Below are positions 22,320-40,709 of a DNA stretch of 64,000 bases, piece by piece. Source of the DNA: an uncultured delta proteobacterium (GTDB taxonomy: Bacteria; Myxococcota_A; Polyangia; Fen-1088); the NCBI GenBank assembly GCA_963767925.1, contig CAVYGB010000008.1, forward strand, positions 2,592,001 to 2,656,000. The letters are read 5' to 3'. Every line of letters begins with the position of its first letter. The stretch's first letter is position 1. The translations under genes and the position numbers were made by a program. Below the pieces are notes generated by a model that ran no database searches, was not told the DNA's origin, and saw only the letters and a program-made list of their open reading frames with translations.

Positions 22320-24617
22320 CTACTGGATGCCCTGCTCGGCGAGATGATCGTAGCGGTCGGTCAGCCATGTGCGGGCGGTCGCGATCTGCGCGGCGAGGTC
22401 GCACTTGCCCTCGGCCGGCGATTCGGCCCAGCTCACCGGATCCCAGTCGGCGAGGGCCTCGTCCAGGAGCGACAGCACATTGGCCCGGGAGAGCACCCCG
22501 CCCACCAGCTCGGTGAAGCGGACGCGAAACTCGTCGCGGTAGGCCTTGAGGAGGGCGCTCTTCAGCAGGTTCACGCCGCCCGCCGGGTCGGGGCCGACGC
22601 CGTCCTCGCCCATGAAGATCGAGGCGTTGGCCTGGGTGCCGACGCCGCCGAACTCCAGGTCGAAGTCCTGGGGCAAGACCTCGTGTTTGCCGTCGCTGGC
22701 CCGCCGATAGAGGTAGAAGTTGTGGACCCCGTCGTCCCAGACCCCGGCGAAGTTTCGCACGGCCCAGCCGGTCAGGAGCTGGCGGACGTCGAAGTACCGG
22801 TCCAGGTGCGCGCGAACCGGGCTCCAGTCGCCGCTCTCGCTGGCGGCGACATAAAGCGGCTCGAGCCCCTCGATGATCGCGATCAGCTCCTCGTGCCCGG
22901 CCGGGTCGCCGTCTTTCCACCCGTGGGTCTGTCGCTCGTAGATCTTCCGGTAGCGCTGCAGGGTGCTCCAGCGTTCCGGGCACCAGGGGTTCAGGCCCAC
23001 CGGTCGAAAGTTGCCGGGCGCCCAGGGCCCCTGGTGGCCCAGGACGCCGTCGGACTTGAACAGATCGCCGACGGCCTCCCGCGGGGCGGTCTTGTCCAGC
23101 AGCTCCTCGCCGATGTCCTCCACCTCCATCATGTAGTGGTAGTAGGCCCCGTTGACGTAGAGCCGGGCGAAGCGAAAGCGCTGGGTGCGCACGCCCGCCG
23201 CCCAGTGCAGCTTGCTGGCCAGGCTGTTCAGCACCCCCGTGCAGGCGTCGAGCTGCTTGTTCAGGGTCACCGTCTCCCGCTCGTCACCCTTGCCGCCCCA
23301 GCGTGAATAGTTGGGGAAGGACAGCCGCCAGCTCAACGCCTTGTGGTCGGGGGGCTGGGTCGGCCCGCTGCCCCCCGGGAGGGGCGGCAGCGGGAGGCCG
23401 TGCCAGCGCCGGTAGCGGCTCCCCTGGTAGCGCACCAGCACGTCGTGGACCCGGCCGGCGTGGACGGCCACCGCCGGCACCCGGGCGTCCCAGGTCGGGT
23501 TGAGCTCGCATCCATCGTTGGGCCCGCCCCCGAGGTTGGTCCACATCTGCGTCCAGCGCGCGGGGGCGATGAAGACCTGGTAGGCGCTGGCGGGCGGCGC
23601 CGGGTCTGGCTCGACGAAGAGCAGGTGAAAGGCGGAGGGATCCCCGGGCCGCGGCGACAGCACCTCGCTGCTCTGGCCGGGGTAATAGTGAAGGATCCGG
23701 TAGCGCACGATGGCCGCCCCTGGGAACGCCGGCAGCAGCGCGTAGTGCTCGCGGTTGCCGTGGTCGGCCATCGCGATCCGGACGCGCGGCTCGGCCTCCT
23801 CGGGGGCGGCGAGATCGTCGATGAAATATTCGACCGCCACCTGACCGACCGCGCCCGGGCTCAGCGTCACCCAGACCGGCATTGCGGCGCCGGGCTTGAT
23901 CACCGTCCCCCGGGGGCCCACCTGCAGAACGATGGCCGGCGGTTCGCCCGAGACGCTGTTCGGCGCGGCCGGAGTACCGCCGCCGGTCGGCGACACGACC
24001 CAGTTGCGCACCTCGGACGCGGGCAGGGAATAGCTCGAGCGCTCGAGGGAGCGCCCGCGGTACTGGTGCTTGTCGTATTCCCCCGCCGGAAACCAGGCCC
24101 CGCCGGCCCCCAGCGCGTCGGCCCCCAGGGGCCAGGGGAGCTGATCGTCGTAGAGGGCCAGATCGACGAGCGTCCCCTGATCATCGAGCAGCGTCACGGT
24201 GTCGCCGCCGTTGTCCAGCTCGCCCTGGTAGTCGCCCAGCACGAGCTCGGGGGGCAGGCCACGATCGACGATCAGCCGCTGGCGATCGCGGGCCAGCACC
24301 AGGTAGCCGCCGGGAGCCAGGGTGGCGGTCTCCGGCAGCACCAGCGCCTCCTGCCCACCGATGATCAGCTTCCACCCATGCAGGGAGCGGGCGACGCTCG
24401 CGGGGTTGTGCAGCTCGACGAACTCGTGGCGCTCGCGAGCGTCATTTTCGAGCACCGGGTGATACATGATCTCCGAGATGGCCACACCGGGCTCCACCAG
24501 GGCAGCGGGCACCGGCCCGGCGATGATCTCGCCGAGAGGCAGACGACAAGCCGCCCCCGCAAGGAGCAGGGGGGTGAATACGGCAAGGCGTAAGAGGGGA
24601 AAAGGGGCCATGTCCAC
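22320..24617 (-). CDS. lamin-tail domain + CotH kinase family lipoprotein
   Basis: ISEIMYHP, EFVELHN, LDNGGD (LTD); RYQGSRYR, ARLYVNG, WDDGVHNFYLY, PQDFD (CotH); lipobox GAAC. Confidence 0.85.
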   Translation of the reverse strand: MDMAPFPLLRLAVFTPLLLAGAACRLPLGEIIAGPVPAALVEPGVAISEIMYHPVLENDARERHEFVELHNPASVARSLHGWKLIIGGQEALVLPETATLAPGGYLVLARDRQRLIVDRGLPPELVLGDYQGELDNGGDTVTLLDDQGTLVDLALYDDQLPWPLGADALGAGGAWFPAGEYDKHQYRGRSLERSSYSLPASEVRNWVVSPTGGGTPAAPNSVSGEPPAIVLQVGPRGTVIKPGAAMPVWVTLSPGAVGQVAVEYFIDDLAAPEEAEPRVRIAMADHGNREHYALLPAFPGAAIVRYRILHYYPGQSSEVLSPRPGDPSAFHLLFVEPDPAPPASAYQVFIAPARWTQMWTNLGGGPNDGCELNPTWDARVPAVAVHAGRVHDVLVRYQGSRYRRWHGLPLPPLPGGSGPTQPPDHKALSWRLSFPNYSRWGGKGDERETVTLNKQLDACTGVLNSLASKLHWAAGVRTQRFRFARLYVNGAYYHYMMEVEDIGEELLDKTAPREAVGDLFKSDGVLGHQGPWAPGNFRPVGLNPWCPERWSTLQRYRKIYERQTHGWKDGDPAGHEELIAIIEGLEPLYVAASESGDWSPVRAHLDRYFDVRQLLTGWAVRNFAGVWDDGVHNFYLYRRASDGKHEVLPQDFDLEFGGVGTQANASIFMGEDGVGPDPAGGVNLLKSALLKAYRDEFRVRFTELVGGVLSRANVLSLLDEALADWDPVSWAESPAEGKCDLAAQIATARTWLTDRYDHLAEQGIQ

Positions 24618-25846: not shown

Positions 25847-26323
25847 TCCCCTGGAACGGTGAAGGCTTGCATATGTCGGCGAGGCATCTTCGTTCCTGGC
25901 AAGGCGCGAGGAGGGCGAATACCTGGCGTATTCAACCGACGAGCAACGCAGCCAGGGACGAAGAGGACCGGCGAGATATGCAAGAAATCACCGTTCCAGG
26001 GGACTAGCGCACCGCTCTCGAAATAGCGTCAAGGATCCGCCGACAAGCCTGCGGCTCCGCGAGGCGCGACGACGACGAATATCCGGCATATTCCGGAGGA
26101 GCAACGAAGCGGGGGCGCAGGATCGTCGGCGCAGCCTTGACGATATTTCGCGAGCGGTGCACTAGCTCCTGTCTCAGGTCCGTCTTCCACAGATTGGAAG
26201 GCCGCAGCCGCCCGGCATCGTTTGCACCCTCGGAACCGGAGGATGCGCCGTACGGATGCCCCCGGTGCGCCGCTGCGACGCCGAGGTCCCGACACGCCCT
26301 TGAGCATCGGGGCGATCCTGCCG

Positions 26324-27145
26324 ATGTCAGGGGTGGTGTGGCGCGCCCGGCGGCTGGCGGTGCTGGGATTACTGGCGGCGGCCTGCACCGCCCCCAATCC
26401 GGCCTACCACCTCCGCGACCTCGGGGTGGACCCGAACGACGCCGGTCTCGGGGTCGACACCGGCTCCGGTCCGCCCGATGGGCCAGGGCTCGGCGGACCG
26501 GCCACCCTGGTGGGGCACTGGGCCTTCGACGAGGGGACCGGGACCACCGTCGCCGACGACCAGGGCACAAATAACGCCGCCTTGACCGGCGGGGTGACCT
26601 GGCTGCAGCCGGGGGCGCCCACCCCGGTCGGCAATCCCGCCTGCTTGCAGTTCGATGGATCGGACGACGAAGGAGAGGCCAACGTGAGCGACCTGGCCGG
26701 GCTGGATCAGCCCTTCAGCCTCGCGGTCTGGGTGTGGTCGCCGCCGCCCTCGGGCAACCCGCGCCGGACCATCCTCACCCTGCTGAAACCGGGGACCGGA
26801 GCGACCGGCGTCCAGCTCGGGCTGCAGGGCCTCGCCCCGGCGCTCTGGTACTACGGGGACGACGGCGCCACCAGCACTCTCGTCTTCCCCTCCCCCATCT
26901 CAGCCCAGACCTGGCACCGCCTGGCCTACGTCCACGAGGACGGCCGCCACACCCTCTACGTCGATGGGGTGTCGATGGCCAGCGCCAACCGGGCGCCGCC
27001 CTCTACCGGGGCGCCCACCCGGCTGCGCATCGCCACCTACGGCGGCACCAGCCAGCACTTTCCGGGGCGGCTCGACGATCTGCGCCTCTACCGCGGGGCC
27101 CTCACCCCGACGCAGGTATCGGCGCTGGTGGCCACGCCCCCCTGA
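26324..27145 (+). CDS. LamG-like jelly-roll lipoprotein
   Basis: lipobox LAAAC; LVGHWAFDEG.G, WHRLAYV, LYVDG, F.GRLDDLRLY..AL. Confidence 0.85.
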   Translation: MSGVVWRARRLAVLGLLAAACTAPNPAYHLRDLGVDPNDAGLGVDTGSGPPDGPGLGGPATLVGHWAFDEGTGTTVADDQGTNNAALTGGVTWLQPGAPTPVGNPACLQFDGSDDEGEANVSDLAGLDQPFSLAVWVWSPPPSGNPRRTILTLLKPGTGATGVQLGLQGLAPALWYYGDDGATSTLVFPSPISAQTWHRLAYVHEDGRHTLYVDGVSMASANRAPPSTGAPTRLRIATYGGTSQHFPGRLDDLRLYRGALTPTQVSALVATPP

Positions 27146-27236
27146 GGGGTCAAGCCGCCGTCCGGGGCGGCGGAGGCCACGAGCGGCGCGCGGGCGGCCC
27201 GCCGCTCTCTTTCGGCCACAGCGGCGCCCGGCCCGG

Positions 27237-29201
27237 CTACAGCGCCAGGCCGCGGGCGATGTCCTGGGCGCCGAGGTACTGGCCCAGCACCTTGAGCAGG
27301 CCGTTGTCCTCGGCGGACTCCTTCTTCACCTGCCGGACCAGCGCCTCCCGGGCGCGCGGGTTGTGCGCCACCATGGCGCCCAGGATGTGGATGATCGACT
27401 GGCGGGTCACGGCGCTGGTCGACTTGCCGAGGTCGGCGATGGCCAGCTCGACGATGCGCGGGTCGGGCACCTCCTGGGCGTCGAAGAGCTGCGCCGAGAG
27501 CGTGCGGTAGAGCTTCTTCTTCACGAAGGGATCGTCCTCCCGGGCCAGCCACTCCACCGTGAGGTTGGCGGTCTCGGCCGGCGGCATGCGCCGGATGATC
27601 GTCGTGGCCGCCTCCCGCACCTTGGGGTCGCCGCTGCGGGTGTGGGGCAACACGTGCGACAGCAGCCCGGGATCGCCGATGTTGGCCAGGGCGCTGATCG
27701 CCGGCCGCAGCGTCCGGGCGGTGCTCCCCTGCTCCAGCAGATCCAGGGCCCCCTGCGCGGCGACCTGCTTGATCTCGCTGTCGTCGGCCTTGAGCCCGGC
27801 CATCATGCCCAGGGCCAGGGCCGCCTCGCGGGAGAACAGCCGCTCGTTGCGGGTGGCCCCCTTGCTCACGCCCTTCGTGTCCTGCAGCAGCGAGCGGGCC
27901 AGGGTCACCCCCACGTCGTCCCGGTCGACCAGGGCGAAGGCGCTGTTGGTCCGCAGGATGGTGGCCGCCCTGGCGTCGTCCTTGAGGCGCCAGAGGGCGT
28001 CGCGCGCCTGCGGGGTGGGGGTCTTGCCGAGCGCGATGAAGGTAGCCGCCACGGCGCCGTCGGCTATCTGGCCCTTGCGGAGCTTGTCCACCACCTCCTG
28101 GGCGTCGTCGGGGTGGGCCTCCAGGTAGGCGCCCAGCACCGGCCAGACGTGGGCGATGTTCTGGTCCGCGTTGATCTTCTCGTACATCATGTCGAGCGCC
28201 TTCGGCAGCTCGATCGCCTTCATCCGCTCGACAACCGCCTGGTGCTCGCGGCTGCGCTGCACGGTCCGCGCCACCCGCGCGACCGCCCGGGTGAACATGT
28301 TCTCCCAGATGTAGCGCCCTGGATTGGTGGGCGCCTCGTCGAGCGCGCCGGTGGTGGGCGGGCGGGCCCCCACCTTGGTGGTGGTGTCGGTGTCGGCGAG
28401 AGACAGCCCGACCAGCTTCTCCCGGCTGATGAGCGAAGCGAACCAGGGCCCGGTCCCGACCGCCACCTTCATGGTGCTGATCTGGGGCTTGCCCGACGCC
28501 GCCCGGGCCATCGGCTTGCCGAGGTTGCCGCTGCGGTCCCACACCTTGGTGTAGAGATCGACGGTCCGATCGACGGTCTCCCCCTCCACCTGGTAAGAGG
28601 CGCGGTAGCGGCCGAACCCGGTCTCACCCTCGTCACTCCCCTGCCCCGCCGCCGGCCAGTACCACTGCAGCTCGTGCACCAGCGCCTGCTGGGTGCGCGC
28701 CGACGCCGTCCCGGTGGTGTCGAGCCGGGCATAGCCCTCGATCTTGCAGCGGTCGCTCACCTTCAGGAGGAAGGGGCCGTCGAGCGCGCCGGCCTCGGCC
28801 ACCGTGCGCGGGTCGACGTACCCGAAGCGGGCCAGCAACACGCCCGCCCCGGCGGGCTCCGCGCTCAGCACCTTCAGATCGAGGTGGGCCTGGGTCAGCC
28901 GGTCGCCCGGCGCACCGTCGAGCCGGGCGCCCGCCGGCAGGTTCAGCCGGCCAGGGTCCACCTTGACCTGAGTGTGCAGGTCGAGGGTGTAGGCCAGCCG
29001 CTGCCCGACCGCGAAGCGACAGCCAGGCTCGCGCGGCCCCGACGGCTCGGGGAGCTCCGGGTGCCCGGGCGCCCCCGCGGCCGGCGCCTCGGCCCCGACT
29101 TCTTCGGAGTCGTCCTGCAGGGCGGTCCAGAGCAAAGCCAGAGATGTCGCCAGCCCCCCGAGCCCGATCAGAACCCCTCGTCCCACCGATCGTCGTGCCA
29201 T
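27237..29201 (-). CDS. N-anchored protein with beta-rich N-domain and HEAT-like helical C-domain (vitellogenin-N-like)
   Basis: N-terminal TM; F..GQRLAYTL beta start; helical repeats ALGKT.TPQA..AL, ALALG, ALANIGD...DPKVREAA. Confidence 0.7.
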   Translation of the reverse strand: MARRSVGRGVLIGLGGLATSLALLWTALQDDSEEVGAEAPAAGAPGHPELPEPSGPREPGCRFAVGQRLAYTLDLHTQVKVDPGRLNLPAGARLDGAPGDRLTQAHLDLKVLSAEPAGAGVLLARFGYVDPRTVAEAGALDGPFLLKVSDRCKIEGYARLDTTGTASARTQQALVHELQWYWPAAGQGSDEGETGFGRYRASYQVEGETVDRTVDLYTKVWDRSGNLGKPMARAASGKPQISTMKVAVGTGPWFASLISREKLVGLSLADTDTTTKVGARPPTTGALDEAPTNPGRYIWENMFTRAVARVARTVQRSREHQAVVERMKAIELPKALDMMYEKINADQNIAHVWPVLGAYLEAHPDDAQEVVDKLRKGQIADGAVAATFIALGKTPTPQARDALWRLKDDARAATILRTNSAFALVDRDDVGVTLARSLLQDTKGVSKGATRNERLFSREAALALGMMAGLKADDSEIKQVAAQGALDLLEQGSTARTLRPAISALANIGDPGLLSHVLPHTRSGDPKVREAATTIIRRMPPAETANLTVEWLAREDDPFVKKKLYRTLSAQLFDAQEVPDPRIVELAIADLGKSTSAVTRQSIIHILGAMVAHNPRAREALVRQVKKESAEDNGLLKVLGQYLGAQDIARGLAL

Positions 29202-29420
29202 CAACACCCCTCGTGAAAGTCGCCCGGCCAACCAGTCGCGCTCGCTTCCGTCCGGACGCGGGCGTGTTCCTGGAAGATCCCGGCCGTTGCTTCGGGTGTG
29301 TGTTTTCAGAACTTGAGGGCGGCGACCCCTTTGCAGTTCCCGCACTTTTCTCCTCAACCCCGGCGCCGGGGCGGACGATGCGCCGGGGTGCGATTCCTCG
29401 AGGAGAGGCGGGTTGGAACG

Positions 29421-32400
29421 ATGACATCTGGTCGGCGCTTCGCACGTTATGTTTCACTGGCCCTCGCGGGCAGCCTGGCGAGCTGTGGCGGCGATTCGCC
29501 GCCGCCCGAAGAAGAGGATCCGCCGCCCTTCGGGGGCGTCGATCCCACCCTGAACTGCCCGGCGGGCCAGGTCGGCTGGGACTTCTCCACCGGCGGCGGG
29601 CGGGTGATCGAAGGTGCGCCCACCACGGGCCGCAAGTGCATCCCGTCGGTCTGCTCCGGTAAAACCCAGCGCGCCGCCGACATGACCTGCGTGGCCAATG
29701 ACCTCATCCCCGAGGTGACATTGCCGGCAGCGAAGATGGCCGACGGCCGCTTCTGGATGGAGCCGGCCTCCACCGACTACAACCAGAACTGGATCCGGAA
29801 GACGGGAGAGGGCGCGCGCCCCGACTACCGCGAGACCCTCGAGGTCTACGGCGGCGTCTGGGGCGGCTGGAAGGGGATGAAGATGTGCCCGGCCGGCTAC
29901 CACGGCAACGGGTACCGCATCCGGGTCGAGAACCCCATCGACGGCGACGACACCGCGATGAACGCCGTGCAGATCAACTGCGTGAACCCCCAGGGGCAGT
30001 CACAGGTGATCACCTCCCACGACGGCGTCTGGGGCGACTGGAAACAGTGGAACTACTGCACGGGCAGCAAATACCTCAACGGGGTCGACATGAAGTTCGA
30101 AGATCCCATCAGCGGCGACGACACCGCCGCCAACGACCTGGGCTTCTTCTGCGGCGACGACCGGATGGGGCTGCACGGCGGCGGCGGTGGCCCCTGGGGC
30201 AACTGGAAACCGCGGGCGTTCTGCGGCAAGGGTCGAACGATCTGCGGCGTGGAGAGCCGCTTCGAAGATCCCATCAACGGCGACGACACCGCCATGAACG
30301 GCCTCAAGATCGCCTGCTGTGACGCCCCCGGGACCGGAGCCACCGCCGCCAACAGCTTCCGGCCGCTCTACCAGGAGGTGCCCTATCGCCTCTCGGCCAA
30401 GGTGCCGGCGGCCGGCGCGGCCTTCAAGACCCGCCTGGCGCTCTGGGTGACGAAGTCCTTCGTCGACCGGCGCGTGAAGGCGGGCCAGAGCCCCGGCGAC
30501 AAGGTGCCGCCCGCGGAGGCCTTCGTGTGCACCTTGACCCACCTCGATGTGCAGAAGCTGGCCGCCGGCGAGGCCATCACCCAGGCGGCTTCCCGCGCCA
30601 TCGGCGAGATCATCTCCCCCGAGTGCGTCAAGGGGCTGGAGAACGCCAGGCTCGATCTCGAGCGCCGGCTGCAGGCCAGAAGGCTCCAGGCCGACCGGGA
30701 CGCCGACGCCGGTCGGATCACCTGGGAGCAGAGAAACACGATCAAGGAGGAGGTCTATCGCGGCATCTCCGAATACGTCGACGACGGCAGCCTCGTGCTG
30801 CACCTGTCGTTCGATCCGATGGGCGACACGTACATCCCGCCCACCACCGCCGCCGCCACTCTCCTGCGCTTCTCCACCGGGGGCAACGCCCCCAACCCGC
30901 CGGGCTTCTTTTACCAGCCCGAGTGGAGGTGGGTGGACATGATCACCTATTACCAGCAGCGCGAGATCCAGGTCCCCTGGATCGGCCCCAACGGGGAGAC
31001 CAGCGGCGCGCAGAGCTCGCTGCTGCACTCCGCCGCCGCCTCGGCCTTCGATCTGCCGACCAAGCTGCTGTTCGGGATCAAGGACTTCAAGCTGGAGAGC
31101 TCGGCCCTCAAGCTCAACCCCTTCGAGCCTTCCCCCCCGGCCGTCACCGTCGACATCGACTGGCTGGTCTACGGCGACATTCAAGCCAACCCCTACTCGG
31201 CTCGCCCCGGGGCCAAGCGCATCAACGACGTGAAGCCCCCCAGCGATCGCAACCTGCGGGCCACGGTCGAGTTCCGCCCGGCCGGCACCACCCTGGCCTG
31301 GAAGGCGATTGGCAAGGTGCCGCTCAACAAGGACGTTCCGGTGGCCACCGGCTCGGTCAAGAGCGCCACCTTCTTCCCGGACAAGACCCAGACCAAGGAC
31401 CTGTTCAGCCAGAGCTCGGGCGCCTGGCGCACCTCCTCGATGTTCGACGTGCGCGTCTGCCTGGACATCGACGGGCTCAACCCCCGGCCCGAGTCGAGCG
31501 GACCGCTCCGCCTGCCCTCGGTCTACGCCGACAGCTTCCTGTTCACGGCCGGCTTCGAGTCGAACGAGAAGGGCTGCGTCACCAAGCCGACCGCCCTGGC
31601 CATCACCCGCGACTTCCTGCTGCGCCCGATCCAGCCCCAGCGCGAGTCGGCCGACGTCGGCATGGTCGACACGACGAAGTCGGGCGGCGACGATGCCAGC
31701 GGCGCCACCGACAACGGCGGCGAGAAGCTGTGCATGGACACCGCCACCGGCCGCCGCTGCGAATCGGAGAGCAGCTCCTCGATGGGCGGCCAGGGTTTCT
31801 TCGGCCGCAGCTTTTACTCGACCGAGACCCGTTCCAGCCAGACCGAAAACACGAACGGCTCGGGCAGCGCCGGGGCGGCCACCAGCGCCGAGATGTTCGG
31901 CTTCCAGGTCATCGACATGGACGACGAGGACATGGAGCGGGGCTGGGCCAGCGAGGCGCAGCGTCCCCAGGACGCCTTCATGCTCACCATCGAGCCGAAC
32001 TGGGACTTCATCATCGAGGGGCTCGAGGTGCTCAACCCCCCCGGTCCCCCACCCCGGCCCAAGTTCGAGGGCAAGAGGGTCAAGGGCCGGATGGGCCTCG
32101 GCATCGGCGTCGGCTTCGAGGCCACCATCCAGATCGGGCCCATTCCCGGCCGGCTGACGGCGTCGTTCGGGGTCGGCTTCTCGGTAGCCCTCATCTTCAC
32201 CCTGAAGTTCAAGGCGGACGGCGAATACCCCTGCACCGGGGACAGCAACACCAAGTGTTTCCTCGCCTCCACCGACCGCAAGAACCAGCGGGAGGCGGCC
32301 CGGGCCTGCGCCAAGAAGGGGGCCCGCCTGGCCGAGATCCGCGGCACCCGCGACCGCGACGGCATCATGGCGGCCGCCGAGGGCGACCAGAACTACTGGA

Positions 32401-34619
32401 TCGGGGGACAGCTCGCCTACCAGTACGCCGACCTCAACTGCGCCGACCCCGCCGCCACCAACCTCGACCGCGAGTGGTGCAAGCGGGAGAGCCAGACCTC
32501 CTACCGCTGGATGGGGAGCGACCGCGAGTTCGCCATCTCCCGTGGGCTCGCCCGCGAGGTCGACTTCCTGAACTACGCCCAGATCCCCGCCCGCCCGCCG
32601 GGCGGAGTCCAGCTCGTCACCGCCGTCCCCGACGCCGGTGGCCTGGCCTATCACGGCGCCTTCCAGAAGATCGTCACCCTGAAGCAGGACGTGGCCTTGC
32701 CTTACGTCTGCGAGTTCGACGGCGTGGGCAAGACCAAATATACGGACATCTCGCTGGGGCTGGGCCTGGGGGTCAGCGTGGGGCTCGCGATGGGGTTTTA
32801 CATCCCCAGCGAGCACTTCGGCTTCGGGGTCGAGGGCACCGTCGACTTCATCAGCGTGGGCCTCACGCCCACCCTCGGCTACCGGGAGTTCGTGCTCTAC
32901 GACAACAACAACCGCTGGCTCGGCACCCGGGGCGAGACCTACACCGAGGGGCCCTGGGAGGTGAACCTGCTCTCCTGCGGCATCCGGGCGGTGGCCAACT
33001 TCCTGCTGTTCTCGGTCAAGTGGTCGCTGCTCGAGTACCCCGGCTTCAAGGTGGCAGGAGGCAAGCTCTGGGACGTGAGCTGGCCGACCCGCCAGGTCTC
33101 GGCCAACCGGCCCGAGCCACCGGTGGAGGCCCCCTCCACCCCGCCCAGCGTGCCCGACGACCAGAAGCTGACGGTGTTCGAGGGTGAGACCCTGGGCACC
33201 GAGCACCAGGTCGGACGCGCGGTCGGCGACGGCTGGGAGGCCAACGTGGGTCAAGACAACGCCGGCTACCTGGTCAGCGGCCCCGAGACGAGGGACATCC
33301 CCGCCGGCAAGCGGATGGCCACCTTCCGGATGAAGATCGACGTCAACACGGGCAACGATCGCGTCGCGGCCATCGAGGTGGTGGACGCCGCGAACGGGCA
33401 AGTCTACGCGAGCCGGAACGTCTACCGGAACGAGTTCTACGCCACCAACACCTGGATCGACTTCCCCCTGCTCTTCACCGCGCCGGGCGGGCGGGCGGTG
33501 CGCCTGCGCGTGTGGTGGGACGACACCGCCCTGCTCAGCGTGGATCGCATCGTCGTCGGGCCTCAGCGCAGCGACCTGCGCGACGCCATCGCCGTCCACA
33601 ACGGGCACTGGGGCGACTGGCAGGGGGTCAAATATTGCCCCGAGGACAGCTACGCGACCGGCTACCGCATGAAGGTGGAGGGCAACCAGGGCGGCGGCGA
33701 CGACACGGCCTTGAACAGCATCGAGCTCCAGTGCACCGACCGCGCCGGCAACAACGCCAACGTGTCGGCCCACCCCGGCTACTGGGGCGGCTGGAACGGC
33801 TGGAAATATTGCCCCAACAACAGCCTCATCAAGTCCGGATCCCTCAAGAACGAGTGGACCCAGGGGGGCGGCGACGACACCTCGGCCAACTCGGTCCGGG
33901 TCCAGTGCACCGACGGGAGCGAGATGGAGGCGCCAGGCGCCACCCCCTGGGGCGACTGGTACGGCTACGTCGCCTGCCCGGCGGGGCAGGCGGTGTGCGG
34001 CCTGGAGGCCCGCATCGAGAACCCTATCAACGGCGACGACACCGCCATGAACGGCCTGCGCTTCATCTGCTGCCAGTACGAGCGCCGGTCCGACAGCTCC
34101 ACCTCGATCGACCTGCAGGTGGAGGCCAGCGGCGCGGGGAGCTGGGCGGGTGCCAACCGCCAGACGGCCACCTGCGCGAACGGCTCGGCCCTGGCCGGGA
34201 TCAGCCGGCCGACCAACGGCGACTCCACCCACCGGGCGGTGTGCGGGAAATTCCCCGCCCTGACCAGCGGGCCGTCCACCGTGCTGTCGCTCCCCAGCGA
34301 CCAGCGGCGGGCGCAGCGGGGGGGCGACTGGGCTCCGAACAACTGGAAGCTCGAGTGTGGCCTCGACGAATACGTCTCGGGCATCTCCAGGAGCAGCGAC
34401 GGCACCGGCATCCAGTCGATCCGCTGCTCGGCGGGCGGCGGCACCAACCGCGGCTGCGAGCTCCGCTCGGTGGTCGACGGGGCCGGGTACGCCGGGGCCT
34501 ACGGGGACTGGGACCCCAACTACTTCAAGAGCGACTGCCCGGCCAACAAGGCCGTCGTGGGTGTCGCCGTCAGCGTCACCACCGCCCGCGCCAGCGGGGT
34601 GCTGTGTTGCGAGCTTTGA
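29421..34619 (+). CDS. giant multidomain lipoprotein: VOMI x2, C-type lectin, CBM-like, Cys-rich C-terminal repeats
   Basis: lipobox LASC; six WGxW..C / GDDTAxN repeats; CTL motifs AxxxC...LAEI...YWIG...YVCE. Confidence 0.85.
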   Translation: MTSGRRFARYVSLALAGSLASCGGDSPPPEEEDPPPFGGVDPTLNCPAGQVGWDFSTGGGRVIEGAPTTGRKCIPSVCSGKTQRAADMTCVANDLIPEVTLPAAKMADGRFWMEPASTDYNQNWIRKTGEGARPDYRETLEVYGGVWGGWKGMKMCPAGYHGNGYRIRVENPIDGDDTAMNAVQINCVNPQGQSQVITSHDGVWGDWKQWNYCTGSKYLNGVDMKFEDPISGDDTAANDLGFFCGDDRMGLHGGGGGPWGNWKPRAFCGKGRTICGVESRFEDPINGDDTAMNGLKIACCDAPGTGATAANSFRPLYQEVPYRLSAKVPAAGAAFKTRLALWVTKSFVDRRVKAGQSPGDKVPPAEAFVCTLTHLDVQKLAAGEAITQAASRAIGEIISPECVKGLENARLDLERRLQARRLQADRDADAGRITWEQRNTIKEEVYRGISEYVDDGSLVLHLSFDPMGDTYIPPTTAAATLLRFSTGGNAPNPPGFFYQPEWRWVDMITYYQQREIQVPWIGPNGETSGAQSSLLHSAAASAFDLPTKLLFGIKDFKLESSALKLNPFEPSPPAVTVDIDWLVYGDIQANPYSARPGAKRINDVKPPSDRNLRATVEFRPAGTTLAWKAIGKVPLNKDVPVATGSVKSATFFPDKTQTKDLFSQSSGAWRTSSMFDVRVCLDIDGLNPRPESSGPLRLPSVYADSFLFTAGFESNEKGCVTKPTALAITRDFLLRPIQPQRESADVGMVDTTKSGGDDASGATDNGGEKLCMDTATGRRCESESSSSMGGQGFFGRSFYSTETRSSQTENTNGSGSAGAATSAEMFGFQVIDMDDEDMERGWASEAQRPQDAFMLTIEPNWDFIIEGLEVLNPPGPPPRPKFEGKRVKGRMGLGIGVGFEATIQIGPIPGRLTASFGVGFSVALIFTLKFKADGEYPCTGDSNTKCFLASTDRKNQREAARACAKKGARLAEIRGTRDRDGIMAAAEGDQNYWIGGQLAYQYADLNCADPAATNLDREWCKRESQTSYRWMGSDREFAISRGLAREVDFLNYAQIPARPPGGVQLVTAVPDAGGLAYHGAFQKIVTLKQDVALPYVCEFDGVGKTKYTDISLGLGLGVSVGLAMGFYIPSEHFGFGVEGTVDFISVGLTPTLGYREFVLYDNNNRWLGTRGETYTEGPWEVNLLSCGIRAVANFLLFSVKWSLLEYPGFKVAGGKLWDVSWPTRQVSANRPEPPVEAPSTPPSVPDDQKLTVFEGETLGTEHQVGRAVGDGWEANVGQDNAGYLVSGPETRDIPAGKRMATFRMKIDVNTGNDRVAAIEVVDAANGQVYASRNVYRNEFYATNTWIDFPLLFTAPGGRAVRLRVWWDDTALLSVDRIVVGPQRSDLRDAIAVHNGHWGDWQGVKYCPEDSYATGYRMKVEGNQGGGDDTALNSIELQCTDRAGNNANVSAHPGYWGGWNGWKYCPNNSLIKSGSLKNEWTQGGGDDTSANSVRVQCTDGSEMEAPGATPWGDWYGYVACPAGQAVCGLEARIENPINGDDTAMNGLRFICCQYERRSDSSTSIDLQVEASGAGSWAGANRQTATCANGSALAGISRPTNGDSTHRAVCGKFPALTSGPSTVLSLPSDQRRAQRGGDWAPNNWKLECGLDEYVSGISRSSDGTGIQSIRCSAGGGTNRGCELRSVVDGAGYAGAYGDWDPNYFKSDCPANKAVVGVAVSVTTARASGVLCCEL

Positions 34620-34651
34620 GCGGGACCACCTGCATCGACAGGACTGCCATC

Positions 34652-35482
34652 ATGAACACCTCGAAGCGCTCCCTGGAAGCCATCGCCCGCGTCGCGCTCG
34701 TCCTCCTCGCCGCCACCTCGGCCGGCTGCGGGGACGACGGCGGCAGCGTCACCCCCAACCCGGACGGCGGCGCGACTCTCGACGCCGGCGAGGATCTGGC
34801 CTACCCCCCGGGCGGCAACATCCCGCCCCCGCCCGATGGGGCCGAAGCGCCGATCATCACCATCGACGCCAACTACACGCCCGAGCAGGAGTGCTGCCCG
34901 GTGGAGCTGTCGATCCCCGATCCCGACGGCAACGAGGCGGTGGCCCGCCTGCTGGGCGACCAGGCGCCCCTCAACCAGGCAGGCGGCGTGCCGCTGACCC
35001 ACAGCAACGGGCGCTGGCGGGCCACGGTCTGCCTGCCGACCCACACCTGGATCAAATATCGCTTCCACTTCGGCACCAAGATGGTGCCGGCCGAGACCCC
35101 TCCTCCCCCCGACGCCAGCACCAGCGACGGGGAGGTCGACGCCGGCGTCGACGCGGGCACCACGGCCGCCCGGCAGGTCGCCTTCCGGGGCGGCATCCGC
35201 GCCGACGACGCCGACGGGGGCCCGCTGGCCGACGCCGGCGCCGGCCTCGAGTCGGACGGCGACGACAAGCCCGAAGCCGGCGAGGCCATCGACGCCGAGC
35301 CACCTCCCGTCTTCAGCCCCGACGCTCCCCCCGCCGCCGAACCCGACGCCGCGCTGGTCACCGTCGACGACTACCGCTGCACCACCGAGGCCCCCCAGGT
35401 GACCGAGGCCGAGGGGACCTACAACCTCTTTTCCGCCCTCACGACCTGCAGCTCCACCCAGAGCGGCAACGCAGCCCCCTGA
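34652..35482 (+). CDS. lipoprotein with small CBM48/CBM20-like beta domain and DAG-rich low-complexity region
   Basis: lipobox SAGC; LLGD...PL..SNGRW.ATV.LP...IKYRF; 32 bp after the giant gene. Confidence 0.7.
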   Translation: MNTSKRSLEAIARVALVLLAATSAGCGDDGGSVTPNPDGGATLDAGEDLAYPPGGNIPPPPDGAEAPIITIDANYTPEQECCPVELSIPDPDGNEAVARLLGDQAPLNQAGGVPLTHSNGRWRATVCLPTHTWIKYRFHFGTKMVPAETPPPPDASTSDGEVDAGVDAGTTAARQVAFRGGIRADDADGGPLADAGAGLESDGDDKPEAGEAIDAEPPPVFSPDAPPAAEPDAALVTVDDYRCTTEAPQVTEAEGTYNLFSALTTCSSTQSGNAAP

Positions 35483-35577
35483 GCCCGACCGCGCCGTCCA
35501 CGGCGGAACCCGGACCTGCTTGCCGCAGGCCCCCCATCGACTATCTTTAGCTCTGGCGGACCCATTTTTCGGTCCGA

Positions 35578-35617
35578 CCCGGACGAGGTGCGCCGTACCC
35601 GAGGCCAAGACGACGCG
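35578..35617 (+). ncRNA. guanidine-III (ykkC-III) riboswitch
   Basis: CCGGACGAGGUGCGCCGUACCCG...CAAGACGACGC closely matches the recalled ykkC-III aptamer; pseudoknot GCGCCGU/ACGACGC with one mismatch; ~14 nt before an SMR gene. Confidence 0.85.
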
Positions 35618-35631
35618 GAAAGGCCCTCGTC

Positions 35632-35958
35632 ATGTCCTGGTTCCTGTTGCTCCTCGCCGGTGCCCTCGAAGTCTGCTGGGCGGTCGGTCTCAAGTACACG
35701 CACGGGTTCACCCGCCCCCTCCCCTCTCTGCTCGTGGCCGGCTCGGTCGCCGCCAGCCTGTTCCTGCTGGCGCTGGCCGTGCGGACGTTGCCGATCGGCA
35801 CGGCCTATGCCGTCTGGGTGGGCATCGGCGCGGTGGGCGCGGCCCTCGCAGGCATCCTCCTTCACGGCGAGCCGATCACGCCGGCGAGAGCGCTGTTCCT
35901 CGGCCTCCTGCTGCTGTCGCTGATCGGCCTCAAGCTCTCGGCGCCCACCGGCCAGTGA
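35632..35958 (+). CDS. gdx: SMR family guanidinium exporter (Gdx/SugE)
   Basis: [37 protein letters not shown]; riboswitch upstream. Confidence 0.9.
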
Positions 35959-36573
35959 TCGTCATCGGCGCCGCCTGCGCCGGCCTTGCGGGCATCTCTG
36001 TCGGGCGACGACCTGAAGGGCTTCGCCCGACCCGGACCCGAAGAGACGCAAGCCCCCCAGGACGAGGGTCAGGGCCAGCCCGACCACGGGCAGCCACGCT
36101 TCGTGGCTGTCCCTGAGCTGACCGACCCAGCGCGGAGCCGGAAGCGCCCGCAGGGAATGCTCAGGACCCGCGTCTCTCTCCGCCCGAGACGCCACCGGCC
36201 CGCAGGCCCCCATGAACAGAGCCAGCGCGAGCGCCGCTCGAATCGAAACTGATCGCATCGAAGTTCCTCCTTGGCGCGCCTCCTTGGCAAGGAGCGGGCC
36301 GACCGCGTGCGCCCTCCCGCCCGCAGAAAGCCAGGCCGTTGCTCTCCGCCCGCCACGGCGAGGGCGCCGTCGACAGTCGGACGGTCCAGGCCGCGGACAG
36401 CCCCGTCCAGAGTCCGTCCCTGCGGTTGGATCCGGGACGGCCCGCCCTCCCGCGCGCGCCGCAGGGTCTCGGGGGCATCCTGCAGGTCCGATGCGGAGCA
36501 GGCGCGACGGCCGGGGGCGAACAATTCCCCGTGACGGAACGCCTCCGGTGTCCGTCGGTCCTTTGTCACGCTG

Positions 36574-37002
36574 ATGCAGCAGGTGAGCCCGCAAGCGTAC
36601 CGGGGCAAACGGGTGCGCCTGTCGGCAGACATCGAGACGGCCGGCGTGGAGGGGGCGGGCCTGTGGATGCGCCTCGACGGCAAGACGGTCGACGACCGGC
36701 AGGAGCAGCTCGTCCTCGACAACATGAACGACCGGCGCATCACCGGCACCACCGCCCGCCGGAACTACCAGGTCGTGCTCGACGTCCCCGAGGTGACCAA
36801 GAACATCGCCTTCGGCGTCATGCTCCGCGACGGTGGGTCGCTCGAGGTCGGCAGCTTCGCCCTCGAGACGGTCGGCGCCGAGGTCCCGGTCACCGGCGAA
36901 TGGGGCGGCGCCCGCCCCGCCCCCCGCAACCTCGAGCCCCCAGCAGCCTACTTCCTTCGAGCCGTGACGATCCAGGCCCGCGAGTCGAACAGGACACCCT
37001 GA
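36574..37002 (+). CDS. carbohydrate-binding-like domain of the type found at erythromycin-esterase/regulator termini; probably the 3' part of a degraded gene
   Basis: LMQ....YRGKRVRLSA, GLWMRLDG, DNM.DRRI.GT, Y.VVLDVP....IAFG, P.NL. Confidence 0.6.
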   Translation: MQQVSPQAYRGKRVRLSADIETAGVEGAGLWMRLDGKTVDDRQEQLVLDNMNDRRITGTTARRNYQVVLDVPEVTKNIAFGVMLRDGGSLEVGSFALETVGAEVPVTGEWGGARPAPRNLEPPAAYFLRAVTIQARESNRTP

Positions 37003-38420
37003 CCCGTGTCGTGGGCGGTGAGGACCTCGCGCAGCCTGGCCAGCGCCTCCTGCGCCGGCGACGCTTCCATACCGGCGAGCAGGTCCTTCGTCATCTTCAT
37101 GTCGCACACGAGGTCGTATGCCGCCGCCACGTCGGGCCCGTAGTAGACCGGCTCGTGCACGTCCTCGAAGGCGACCTCGACGAAGCCGGCCCCGCCGAGG
37201 ATGGACTCGACCTTGGCCGGCTCGGCCAGCGAGAACGGATCCGGCCCGCGCGCCGGATGCGCGGGCGCGACGCCGCCGGTGAGCGCGTAGCGGACCGCGG
37301 TCGCCCACTCGTTGCGGTCCTCACCTTGCCAGACCAGCATCACCAGGCGGGCGCCGGCCCGCGCGGCGCGCGCGACGCTGGTGAACGCGGCGACCGGATC
37401 GCTGAAGAACATCGTCCCGAAACGGCTGATGACCACGTCGAAGTGGGCCGGCGGGAGAGGATCGACCTGCACATCACCCCGCTGGTAGGCCACGTTGCCC
37501 AACCCCTCCTCCGCCGTGCGCCGGCGGGCGCGCTCGAGCATCTCGTCGGAGATGTCCACGCCCAGCGCGCCTCCGGAGGTCGCGACTCGGGCGGCATCGC
37601 GGGTCGACTGCCCAGCCCCGCAGCCGATGTCGAGCACCCGGTCGCCCGGGCCGATGCGGGTGGCGACGCGCAGCCGCTGGTTGTGGCGGCGGAGCTCGGC
37701 ATCGTAGTTGTCGGCGAGCCGCCGGCGCGTCGCCCGAGCCTCGATCGAGCAGTCAACCAGGATGTCGGTCAGCTCCCGCGGGCGACTCAACGCCACACAG
37801 TGGCTGGCCGTGATCTCGATCGGCGTGACGCCGAGACGCTCGGAGACGACCCGACGAAGAAAGGCGGCCGGAAAGAAGCGATCCTCCGTGCACAGCACGA
37901 ACCTGGTCGGCACGTCGGGCCTGGCGGCGAGGGGCCAGGGCGAAGCCAGGGCGGCCTCCGACGGATGTGCGCGCTCCTTGCTCATCGCCTCCGCCGCCAG
38001 CGCGGGCGGCACGTCGTGATAGAAGCCGACGTACGGATCCTCGCTCCCGGTCTTGCCGCCGTCGCGCGCGGCCTGCTCCTGCACCGCCTGTCGATAGCCG
38101 GTATTGCCCCACCAGTCCCCCGGAGCCTCACCCGGCGACGGGATCATGCCGGCCACGTAGATCAGCGCATCGACCGGAAGCCGGGCGGCGACCAGCGGCG
38201 CGGTGAAACCTCCGAACGAGTGACCGACGACGACCAGATCCTTCCGGCCGCCGACGGCCTCGACAACCGCCTCGGCGTAGTCGGTCAGCTCCAGCGACGC
38301 ATCGTCCCCGGGAAGGTCCGGGGCCACCACGTCGTGCCCACGCGCACGCAACTCGGCCTCCACCAGATGCCAGTACCAGCCGACGTCACCCGCCCCGTGG
38401 ATCAACACGAAGGTGCTCAT
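36948..38420 (-). CDS. alpha/beta hydrolase fused to class I SAM methyltransferase
   Basis: FVLIHG, GHSFGG, HC.ALSRP then in frame VLDIGCGAG, GVDIS..ML, FDVVISRFG.MFF. Confidence 0.85.
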   Translation of the reverse strand: MSTFVLIHGAGDVGWYWHLVEAELRARGHDVVAPDLPGDDASLELTDYAEAVVEAVGGRKDLVVVGHSFGGFTAPLVAARLPVDALIYVAGMIPSPGEAPGDWWGNTGYRQAVQEQAARDGGKTGSEDPYVGFYHDVPPALAAEAMSKERAHPSEAALASPWPLAARPDVPTRFVLCTEDRFFPAAFLRRVVSERLGVTPIEITASHCVALSRPRELTDILVDCSIEARATRRRLADNYDAELRRHNQRLRVATRIGPGDRVLDIGCGAGQSTRDAARVATSGGALGVDISDEMLERARRRTAEEGLGNVAYQRGDVQVDPLPPAHFDVVISRFGTMFFSDPVAAFTSVARAARAGARLVMLVWQGEDRNEWATAVRYALTGGVAPAHPARGPDPFSLAEPAKVESILGGAGFVEVAFEDVHEPVYYGPDVAAAYDLVCDMKMTKDLLAGMEASPAQEALARLREVLTAHDTGQGVLFDSRAWIVTARRK

Positions 38421-38641
38421 GGCCGGCATTCTGCACCGGGGCAGCGCCAGGTGCCCACTGCGCGGCCGGGCGCCGTGGGGGGACGAACGTTCAGGATGGG
38501 CGGCCGAAGCGGCGGCGCACGCGGTGCAGGCGAAGGACGCGCCGGCGCGGGCCAGGGAGGCGAGGCCGCGCAGGGTCCCGGGGTACGCCTGCAGGGAGAC
38601 GCAGGCTCGCTCCTGGGTGGTCCAGAGCTCCGTCCAGCACT

Positions 38642-39076
38642 CTACTCCGTGTACACCGTCTCTTCCGGGACGTCGGTGGGGCTCTCGAAGAGGAGGCGAT
38701 AGCCGTCGGGGTCGGTGAGCTCGGTGACCCAGAGACCGTTTCCGACGAAGGGGGTGCCGGCTTCGATCCCCCGCGACCGGAACTGCTCGTAGAGGGCGAT
38801 CGCGTCGGCGCACATGAAGCAGATCGAGACCCCCTGGCCCAGCTTGACTTCGGGACGGAAGGACGCCTCGCCGACCCTCGCGTACTCCTGCAGCATCAGG
38901 GCGGCGCTGCCGATCTCCAGCCAGCACCACCGGGTCTTCCCGTCGACCACCCACTGGTTGGTCACCCGGAACCCCAGCCCGTCGACGTAGTAGCGCAGGG
39001 TAACTTCCATGCTAGCGACGCCGAAGAACGGCACCGCCTGTTTCACGTTGGGATCGCGCGCGGGCTCCGCTGCCAC
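38642..39076 (-). CDS. VOC (glyoxalase/bleomycin resistance) family protein
   Basis: YYVDGLGF, LML.E, DPDGYRL.F. Confidence 0.88.
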   Translation of the reverse strand: MAAEPARDPNVKQAVPFFGVASMEVTLRYYVDGLGFRVTNQWVVDGKTRWCWLEIGSAALMLQEYARVGEASFRPEVKLGQGVSICFMCADAIALYEQFRSRGIEAGTPFVGNGLWVTELTDPDGYRLLFESPTDVPEETVYTE

Positions 39077-39129: not shown

Positions 39130-40404
39130 CTAACGACAGGCTTCGCGCGGGGGGTCGAGGTGGGGGGACTTCAGGATGGAGCTGAAGCGGTAGCGGTTCG
39201 CTTCCTCGCAGAACTCGTCCAGCGGCAGGTCGTATTCGGTGTGGAAGACCGGCTTGCCCGCCTCGATGAACGGGAGCAAGCGTTCGCACTCGTTGTACTC
39301 GAAGCACTGCTCATTGACGGAGAAGTCGAAGTCGGCCACTAGATCTCGCACCTGATTCACGTCGTTCTTCAGGGCGACGGCCAGGCCCCGCCGGTGGGCC
39401 TCGGCGGCGACGAGCCGGTTGTACCGGATCTGGTCCTCGTACGTCAGATCGAAGCCGGACGACTCATGGGCCGAGGTGTCGTAGCCGTCGAGGTTGTCCG
39501 GCTCGACCGCGTCACACCCCTTCTCCACCGCCAGGTCCAGGCGCGAGCGGATGATCGGCAGCAGGAGGTCGATGGCCCGGATGTCGAGCCAGTTCTCGTC
39601 GGGGAACCCGTGGTACTCGTCGCCGATGACCGATTCGGGGAAACGATCGGCGTCCTCGCGCCAGTCCTCCCAGGCGCCCAGGTTGACGTAGCAGATCACC
39701 CGGCGTCCGCTCGCGTGCAGATCGGCCACCACGTCGCCGGAGTTGTCGAACAGGTCGATGTCGTAGACCTCGACGTCGTGATCGGCCGAGATGGGGGACC
39801 TGAGCTGCCAGTCCCACGTGGTTCCCACGCCCGGCCGCCACCATCCACCCCCCGACTGCGACGGCGGGAGGGGGGGCGGTGCTGGTGGAGGCGGTGGGGG
39901 CGGAGGAGGAGGTGGGGGTGGTGGTGGTAGAGGCGTCGGCGATGCCGGTGGAGGCAGCGGCGGGGCGGGCGGGAGCGGTGCAGGTGCCGGGGGCGGTGCT
40001 GGGGCGGGCGGCGCCGGTGATGGTGGAGGCGGGGGAGCTGGCGCCGGCGGAGGTCCTGGAGCGGGAGGAGGCGGTGCGGGCACCGGCGGAGGTACTGAAA
40101 CGGGCGGCGCCGGTAGTGGTGGAGGCGGGGGTGGCGCGGGTGGGGACGGGGTTGGTGGGGGCGGCGTCGGGTTCGGCGGCAACGGCGGGGCCCCGCCAGC
40201 ATCGCCCGGCGAAACCGGTCGAACGGGAACCGACGCGTCGGCCGAAGGACGGTCGTTGTGGACGCTGGACCCGGCCTCTGCCGTCGCGGAACCGTCCCTC
40301 CGCACCGGCGCGTCCGACGAGAGCATATTCCGAGGAACAGCCGACTCGGTCTGACAGGCCCCGGCCGCGAGCAAGATGAAAAGCGATAAGCCCCGCCTGA
40401 TCAC
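39130..40404 (-). CDS. GH114 endo-alpha-1,4-polygalactosaminidase-like lipoprotein with poly-Pro linker
   Basis: WWRP..GTTWDWQL, VYDIDLF, VICY, ENWLDIR, KGCDAVEPDNLDGY, LKND, NEQC..YNEC, GKPV..EY. Confidence 0.9.
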   Translation of the reverse strand: MIRRGLSLFILLAAGACQTESAVPRNMLSSDAPVRRDGSATAEAGSSVHNDRPSADASVPVRPVSPGDAGGAPPLPPNPTPPPPTPSPPAPPPPPPLPAPPVSVPPPVPAPPPPAPGPPPAPAPPPPPSPAPPAPAPPPAPAPLPPAPPLPPPASPTPLPPPPPPPPPPPPPPPAPPPLPPSQSGGGWWRPGVGTTWDWQLRSPISADHDVEVYDIDLFDNSGDVVADLHASGRRVICYVNLGAWEDWREDADRFPESVIGDEYHGFPDENWLDIRAIDLLLPIIRSRLDLAVEKGCDAVEPDNLDGYDTSAHESSGFDLTYEDQIRYNRLVAAEAHRRGLAVALKNDVNQVRDLVADFDFSVNEQCFEYNECERLLPFIEAGKPVFHTEYDLPLDEFCEEANRYRFSSILKSPHLDPPREACR

Positions 40405-40709
40405 CGGACCCACAGTATCACCCCTGACCCGCAGCCAGAAGTGACACCGGTCTCGAGGTTTATCGGGCCTTCTGGCGGTCGGCATCCTCGCCGGGGATAT
40501 CCGTGCCGCCGACGCTCCCCCTTCGTGGCGCCAGCGTCGCGGTCGTCCGTCAGCGCAGCTGGAACAGGCGGGGCACCAGCCGCGGGTCGCGAACAGCGGC
40601 CGGGCGGTGTCGCCGTCGATCTCGTGAATCTACGGGAGGGAAGCGGGGCCCAAGTCGATTTGAAGTAAAAGTCACTTTCACCCTCGGGAGAGGAAGCGAC
40701 GTCGGCGCG

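Follow-up and report, generated by a model that had tools for sequence, protein, structure and literature searches.

We analysed a 64,000-nucleotide stretch of DNA (the window) from an uncultured delta proteobacterium of the Myxococcota (contig CAVYGB010000008.1 of assembly GCA_963767925.1, positions 2,592,001 to 2,656,000), in which three genes, here called A, B, and C, occupy positions 27237–35482. The locus is a real and conserved two-gene module that resembles the large lipid transfer proteins (LLTPs) and is decorated with lectin domains; its lipid function is inferred. As judged from its structural model, protein A very probably has the fold of the LLTP front module, in which a half-barrel surrounds a central helix and leads into a helical clamp of two layers. 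An earlier note, made from the letters alone, had read the locus as a candidate LLTP split into separate subunits and aimed by glycan-binding modules at prey or host surfaces. The translations bear out the layout given there: A and B diverge from a 219-bp spacer, and the small lipoprotein gene C follows B after 32 bp (Table 1). The GC content at third codon positions is 0.91–0.93 in the frames of A, B, and C, and the window DNA has about 70% GC, which marks the three frames as coding and the genes as real.

An AlphaFold2 (AF2) model of protein A, built on 24 relatives, had a mean predicted local distance difference test (pLDDT) score of 84.4. The model contains a beta half-barrel, with its beta domain at residues 68–299, followed by a HEAT-like horseshoe, and Pfam HEAT_2 matched residues 485–568 (E 5.8e-8), in agreement with the beta-rich N-domain and HEAT-like helices that the earlier note had described. 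The chain ends at residue 654 right after the helices, and the A and C lipid-binding sheets are absent from it. The fold check proposed in that note was also favorable to LLTPs: when the model was searched against the PDB with Foldseek, ranks 1–10 of 500 were all LLTPs (E 1.4e-12 to 2.2e-6, 627–778 columns). These were MTP (6i7s_G/H, E 1.4e-12 and 1.7e-12; 8eoj, E 3.2e-9), lamprey lipovitellin (1lsh, E 2.7e-9), apoB-100 (9e9r, 9ea7, 9bd1, and 9bdt, E 3e-8 to 2.2e-6), and honey bee vitellogenin (9enr and 9ens, E 3.9e-8 and 1.5e-7). Pure HEAT/ARM proteins appeared in the same list from E 7e-5, with 250–470 columns. In a separate search with VIA, apoB 9bd1 was aligned to residues 58–636 of the model (465 residues, Z 14.8).

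The large subunit of MTP, the smallest LLTP, whose partner is PDI, was the top match to A (674 columns). As PMC6717300 describes MTP, 13 strands and three short helices surround a longer helix in the half-barrel (aa 21–297), and the helical domain (aa 298–603) has 17 helices in two layers that clamp the A and C sheets. The two domains of A, a half-barrel around a helix at residues 60–300 and two layers of helices at 318–653, agree with this description in size and element counts. Unlike MTP, protein A has neither the A and C lipid-binding sheets nor the conserved barrel disulfide nor a match to the Pfam Vitellogenin_N family (PF01347). Moreover, its partner from the neighboring gene is a lectin-bearing lipoprotein and not PDI, and A is predicted to be exported in a bacterium, whereas MTP resides in the lumen of the endoplasmic reticulum. 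Lipovitellin, bee vitellogenin, and apoB-100 match both domains of A (E 2.7e-9 to 2.2e-6); unlike A, they are single chains of 1,100–4,500 residues with large lipid cavities. In further distinction from these single-chain LLTPs, any sheet part of the present system would be encoded by a separate gene, usually upstream.

Several results weigh against the assignment of A to the LLTP fold. The top rows of the VIA search were HEAT/ARM proteins (Z 15–16.7), which ranked above apoB 9bd1, and the TM-scores of A to LLTPs in Foldseek were 0.26–0.33, with root-mean-square deviations (rmsd) of 13–20 Å. The LLTP match of the barrel rests on searches with the whole of A, both domains together. The conserved barrel disulfide joins partners that are 20–26 residues apart (MTP C174–C194, lipovitellin C156–C182, and apoB C186–C212, as given in PMC6717300), whereas the only cysteines of A, Cys61 and Cys152, are 91 residues apart, both being nearly invariant in the A family. 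No match to PF01347 (cut-off 24 bits) was found in A at E ≤ 0.1, and none was found in the whole host genome. Among the relatives of A, the same Pfam model matched 3 of the 24 close members (best E 8.7e-5), and of the 12 distant members it matched 8; two of these matches are above the cut-off, and all of them are confined to the helical part. Of 14 control genomes, two (Synechococcus elongatus and Methanosarcina acetivorans) also gave a match, which exceeded the cut-off in one of them, so the matches in the relatives may be HEAT cross-matches. The clusters nearest A in the ESM Atlas are bacterial (Myxococcota, Planctomycetota, and Pseudomonadota) and are labelled HEAT_2 plus Vitellogenin_N; they indicate that the A family is large, and the same caveat applies to their Vitellogenin_N label. 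The matches in the control genomes call for caution where HEAT-repeat proteins of prokaryotes carry an automatic Vitellogenin_N label, since such labels are partly cross-matches.

In searches against the PDB sequences, the A-family profile and the family member P0026 found no LLTP, only HEAT-type or chance matches. This lack of a significant sequence match to any solved LLTP, together with the low TM-scores and the PF01347 matches in unrelated genomes, would suit an explanation in which A resembles LLTPs by convergence or through an artefact, that is, a generic beta domain joined to generic HEAT repeats with neither common descent nor a shared mechanism. We consider this very unlikely. The ten best Foldseek matches come from four LLTP subfamilies and cover both domains, and the best E value lies 7–8 orders of magnitude below those of HEAT-only proteins. 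Furthermore, the agreement with MTP in element counts and domain lengths and the conservation of a sheet-rich lipoprotein partner beside A both argue against coincidence. Common descent of A with the LLTPs is probable.

At the N-terminus of A, a basic stretch (in A itself MARRSVGRG) precedes about 18 hydrophobic residues, which are followed by charged residues and a Pro/Ala-rich linker of 30–40 residues. This layout is common to 24 of 24 A family members, and a lipobox occurs there in none of them. The hydrophobic segment could stay in place as an anchor or be cleaved off as a signal; the shared layout and the missing lipobox fit an N-terminal anchor, as far as the sequences can tell. The relatives of A found by a word-based search (25) were all Myxococcota-type records or metagenomes.

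The pairing of A with B is conserved. Among the loci examined, 26 of 27 have a B-type gene next to the A-type gene, with variable lectins, which is the outcome that the neighborhood survey suggested in the earlier note had looked for. All 15 loci of the close family (the window, L005–L011, G409, G289, G113, two each in G125 and G389) have the B core as the neighbor of A. When seven genome loci were searched by tblastn with A, B, and C as queries, every one of them had the B core adjacent to A. The more distant ones among the seven carry the genes as B, A, C, all on the same strand and separated by tiny gaps, and in L011 the stop codon of A overlaps the start of C. The B–C pair converges on A in L005, and A is inverted in the window; these varied arrangements indicate that the A/B unit survives rearrangement. 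In a sample of 401 genomes of the phylum, 26 contained A-like genes. The strong A matches in this sample (G409, G289, G113, two in G125, two in G389, and G080) all have the B core adjacent, and the B core itself was found in seven genomes, with A adjacent in six and the seventh being a fragment on a short contig. The weaker A-like matches (G209, G217, G252, G382, G392, G397, G412, G452, G227:C29, G477:C460, and G389:C347) are left out of these neighborhood counts.

In regards to the distant A-like loci, an open reading frame (ORF) of 616–1239 aa lies directly upstream on the same strand in 11 of 12. These upstream ORFs are mutually related, and a simple pattern found a lipobox in 7 of the 11. 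They share with B only its C-terminal module, which consists of a C-type lectin-like domain (CTLD) plus strands (hhalign probability 96%, E 3.8e-9, 257 columns). Such deep conservation of the pairing indicates that the partnership is old, and the element that has been kept is the module to which the earlier note had pointed. The synteny rules out that A and B are unrelated neighbors by chance and makes physical binding of the two proteins the leading reading. In the LLTPs, the domains come in the reverse of the usual gene order (B then A), which counts against this comparison. No fused A+B protein was found among 8000 longer candidates, which is weak evidence.

Three further observations were made at these loci. 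One distant A-like gene (L023, G090:C5, 6084–8159) lacks a B-type ORF out to about 6 kb, and this gene has the best Pfam Vitellogenin_N score among the relatives (31.4 bits). Giant ORFs of 1993 to >2430 aa lie directly downstream of distant A-like genes in L012 (8903–14881), L013 (9208–15999), and L014 (8710–15999); they combine a clostripain-type Peptidase_C11 domain with animal-like modules (TSP1, NIDO, Dicty_CTDC repeats, and RCC1) and may be a third component in the distant branch. In two Labilithrix loci, a DUF1554 protein of 712–752 aa is encoded directly upstream of the B-A-C operon (L006, 3883–6141; L011, 3991–6129).

Protein B is a lipoprotein with exchangeable lectin domains around a conserved core. 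Its signal carries a LASC lipobox ending at Cys22, and among 37 B relatives a lipobox was found in 28 by a simple pattern and in most of the others by eye, that is, in nearly all. The core family comprises 111 representatives at 50% identity (E ≤ 1e-3), and most relatives are 1,100–1,200 aa long and end right after the core. The vitelline membrane outer layer protein I (VOMI) family (PF03762) matched B in two stretches (E 2.4e-83, 278.7 bits against a cut-off of 25), which represent two full copies. Unlike VOMI alone, these copies are accessory modules of a 1732-aa lipoprotein. The outer domains vary among the relatives, which carry VOMI with ricin and AbfB domains, SUEL, EGF, or none; the variability of the lectin modules claimed in the earlier note is thus confirmed. 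The C-terminal part of B contains three Cys-bracketed repeats of about 60 residues, possibly a further unrecognised lectin-like module, and Pfam gave no match at E ≤ 10 on 34080–34619.

The AF2 model of the B core (pLDDT 83.4; predicted TM-score 0.71) shows beta-rich domains followed by very long strands, at residues 890–905, 908–929, and 1104–1129 and five more up to 1226. In the three strands given by residue, one face is 77–100% hydrophobic and the other is Gly/Ser/Thr/polar, mostly Gly. The Gly-rich strands cited in the earlier note were located at 32094–32186 and 32748–32864, and its description of B as a giant lipoprotein with long Gly-rich strands of alternating hydrophobicity is upheld by the lipobox and by this analysis of the strand faces. 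The CTLD sits between the amphipathic strands. It superposes on the CTLDs of NKp80 (8qmd), LOX-1 (3vlg/1ypq), and tetranectin (1htn) (VIA Z 14–15, rmsd 2.3–2.9 Å, 110–128 residues; Z 14.9 at rmsd 2.4–2.6 Å over 118–120 residues); unlike those, the domain in B is inserted in a sheet of long amphipathic strands and belongs to a bacterial lipoprotein. The B family profile matched PLA2R (E 2.6e-17) and tetranectin (E 4e-9) among the PDB sequences, and the CTLD cysteines are invariant in the B family. Pfam Lectin_C on B alone remained below the cut-off (E 0.018). A role of the last strand of B as an outer-membrane barrel signal was also considered and is unsupported, the family C-termini being P-x-x-E-x-(F/Y) tails and not a strand ending in Phe.

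The proposal that the strands of B are LLTP lipid-binding sheets found no confirmation. Fold searches with the B core (Foldseek against the PDB, VIA against 48,161 representatives, and VIA against Foldseek's top 998 chains) gave only CTLDs, apart from low-probability rows of alpha-2-macroglobulin/C3, and the LLTP C-terminal Pfam families had no match at E ≤ 10 in 38 B family members. Both results count against the reading of the pair as LLTP-like, with the qualification that CTLD rows filled every fold list, so that these lists do not give the fold of the strands. A search of the ESM Atlas with the B core gave no usable match.

The long amphipathic strands of B, along with the beta-prism (VOMI) and beta-trefoil (ricin) lectin domains of B and its relatives, are also what would be expected if B were a lectin-targeted adhesin or a membrane-damaging protein whose strands insert as in lectin-bearing beta-pore-forming toxins, of which Vibrio cholerae cytolysin is an example presented in a review. 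Protein A would then be a helical-repeat chaperone, scaffold, or export helper, and no lipid would be carried; a chaperone role has a parallel in MTP, whose barrel and helical domains are described in PMC6717300 as a chaperone of apoB. Against this, the fold lists of the B core contained no aerolysin-, haemolysin-, or MACPF-type fold, with the qualification that CTLDs filled them. Gly, not Ser/Thr, predominates on the polar side of the strands, the lipobox anchor in nearly all relatives is unusual for a released toxin, and the retention of an LLTP-type barrel by a mere helper would be left unexplained. We regard this explanation as unlikely.

The dominance of lectins in B is also consistent with a surface complex of A, B, and possibly C for glycan recognition or cell-cell adhesion, in which A would be a protein-binding platform and the sheet of B would be buried at a protein interface. 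HEAT repeats are general protein-binding scaffolds, and the top VIA rows for A were all such proteins; the giant multi-domain extracellular proteins just downstream of A in distant loci (Peptidase_C11 with TSP1, NIDO, Dicty_CTDC, or RCC1) would also fit such a complex. However, only the module of CTLD plus amphipathic strands is kept across the deep A-like/B-like pairs, not the outer lectins, and the specific pairing with an LLTP-type barrel would have no explanation. This arrangement therefore appears improbable to us, to about the same degree as the adhesin or pore former.

Of the readings considered, we favor, tentatively and with slightly less than even confidence, a two-chain LLTP-like particle outside the cytoplasm, in which A would provide the barrel and the clamp, B would provide the greasy sheet, and the lectins would aim the particle. 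A, B, and C would make up a single conserved module of the envelope or the cell surface in this Myxococcota genome. Protein A would be the bacterial counterpart of the LLTP N-terminal module, ending where the animal LLTPs begin their lipid-binding sheets. Protein B would be an outer-membrane-type lipoprotein whose core, flanked by the exchangeable lectin domains, ends in a sheet with one greasy and one Gly-rich face and the CTLD inserted in it. By analogy with MTP, in which the A and C sheets sit in the barrel and the helical clamp, the sheet module of B would dock on A, and outside the cytoplasm the pair would hold a hydrophobic ligand, be it lipid or another. Glycans on prey, matrix, or sister cells would be the targets to which the lectins guide the particle. 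MTP, as described in PMC6717300, functions only as a heterodimer, and its barrel and helices act as a chaperone for apoB; neither a pair of chains nor a role like that of a chaperone would thus go beyond what is known of LLTPs. The split-LLTP reading of the earlier note stands in part: the fold of A, the pairing of A and B, and the variation of the lectins agree with it (Foldseek, synteny, and Pfam), but its LLTP-type sheets in B did not emerge from searches that returned CTLDs only, and its composite lipid cavity did not emerge from a complex prediction that gave no interface. Lipid capture and membrane attack, the roles that it offers as examples, are putative.

This complex prediction was performed with residues 58–654 of A and residues 548–930 of the B-core model. 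The ipSAE scores were 0.42, 0.28, and 0.43, against 0.00 for the best of three controls, which the tool marks as 'weak support'; the partner had a pLDDT of 57, and the runs agreed in at least 36% of the contacts. In the calibration of the tool, 116 of 157 solved complexes and 2 of 215 mismatched pairs attained this mark, and scores of ≤ 0.60 were obtained for only 18 of those solved complexes but for both mismatched pairs. The run is therefore counted as evidence neither for nor against binding of A and B.

LLTPs are treated as eukaryotic, mostly animal, proteins in the account of PMC6717300, and PMC13540394 in its account links them to multicellularity. A literature search (LLTP, Vitellogenin_N/PF01347, or vitellogenin, in bacteria, prokaryotes, or Myxococc) found no description of a bacterial LLTP-like member, and the A/B pair is unpublished. 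If the conserved pair does contain an LLTP front module, the LLTP family would gain a prokaryotic branch, the pair would offer a small two-gene system for the study of lipid loading by LLTP modules, and predatory bacteria would have a previously unknown way to handle lipids or surfaces. A bolder proposal, which we hold to be doubtful, is that the LLTP design was not invented by animals or by eukaryotes and is widespread in bacteria as a two-chain exported machine, consisting of a barrel-plus-clamp protein (A) and a greasy-sheet lipoprotein (B) with a CTLD in its sheet and swappable lectins. Predatory soil bacteria would aim this lipid-harvesting or lipid-delivering particle at chosen glycans, and the single-chain LLTPs of animals would be derived from such pairs or go back to a common ancestor with them.

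Table 1. Genes, domains, and structural elements of the A/B/C locus, in window positions.
Feature	Position	Strand	Description
Gene A	27237–29201	minus	654 aa, predicted exported or membrane-tethered; very probable fold of LLTP N-terminal module
A, HEAT-like horseshoe (residues 318–653)	27243–28250	minus	about 20 helices in two layers (AF2 model)
A, beta half-barrel (residues ~60–300)	28302–29024	minus	12 strands, 2 short helices, longer helix 165–178 (DSSP of AF2 model)
Spacer A/B	29202–29420		219 bp, divergent
Gene B	29421–34619	plus	1732-aa lipoprotein
B, first VOMI beta-prism domain (residues ~142–300)	29844–30320	plus	PF03762; borders by analogy with the second copy
B, conserved core (residues 305–1226)	30333–33098	plus	family core
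B, two long amphipathic Gly-faced strands (residues 890–929)	32088–32207	plus	before the CTLD (AF2 model)
B, C-type lectin-like domain (residues 934–1104)	32220–32732	plus	VIA, family profile
B, six further long strands (residues 1104–1226)	32730–33098	plus	most relatives end here
B, second VOMI domain (residues 1394–1551)	33600–34073	plus	PF03762
B, C-terminal Cys-bracketed repeats (residues 1552–1732)	34074–34619	plus	no assigned family
Gene C	34652–35482	plus	276-aa probable lipoprotein, no known family

Protein C has SAGC at Cys26 after a hydrophobic stretch, a lipobox less canonical than that of B, and searches of Pfam, NCBIfam, and the PDB sequences gave nothing notable for it. A homologue of C was found by tblastn in five of the seven genome loci (L003/L005, L006, L007, L008, and L011) and in none of the 12 distant A-like loci; by these sequence comparisons, gene C is confined to the closer A/B family. 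The host genome is 9.3 Mb in 13 contigs, and A and B are each present in a single copy. A look-up of sequencing runs listed no RNA data set for the locus, and one soil-metagenome DNA run contained a fraction of 0.13 of the sampled words. Promoter and terminator scans of 27000–36000 gave nothing above shuffled sequences, and a sigma-70-like site was not found in the 219-bp spacer between A and B.

Several other genes surround the locus. A gene at 26222–27145 (plus strand), converging on the 3' end of A, encodes a 307-aa protein with a Laminin_G_3/ConA-like lectin domain (E 4e-20) and was not seen as a conserved neighbor in the other A/B loci. Further out on this side, 22320–24617 (minus strand) encodes a 765-aa protein with a Lamin Tail Domain (E 1e-14) and a CotH kinase domain (E 1.7e-24). 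On the other side, 36948–38954 (minus strand, 668 aa) encodes an apparent fusion of an alpha/beta hydrolase and a SAM methyltransferase, and 39130–40485 (minus strand) encodes a GH114 glycoside hydrolase (E 2.3e-82).

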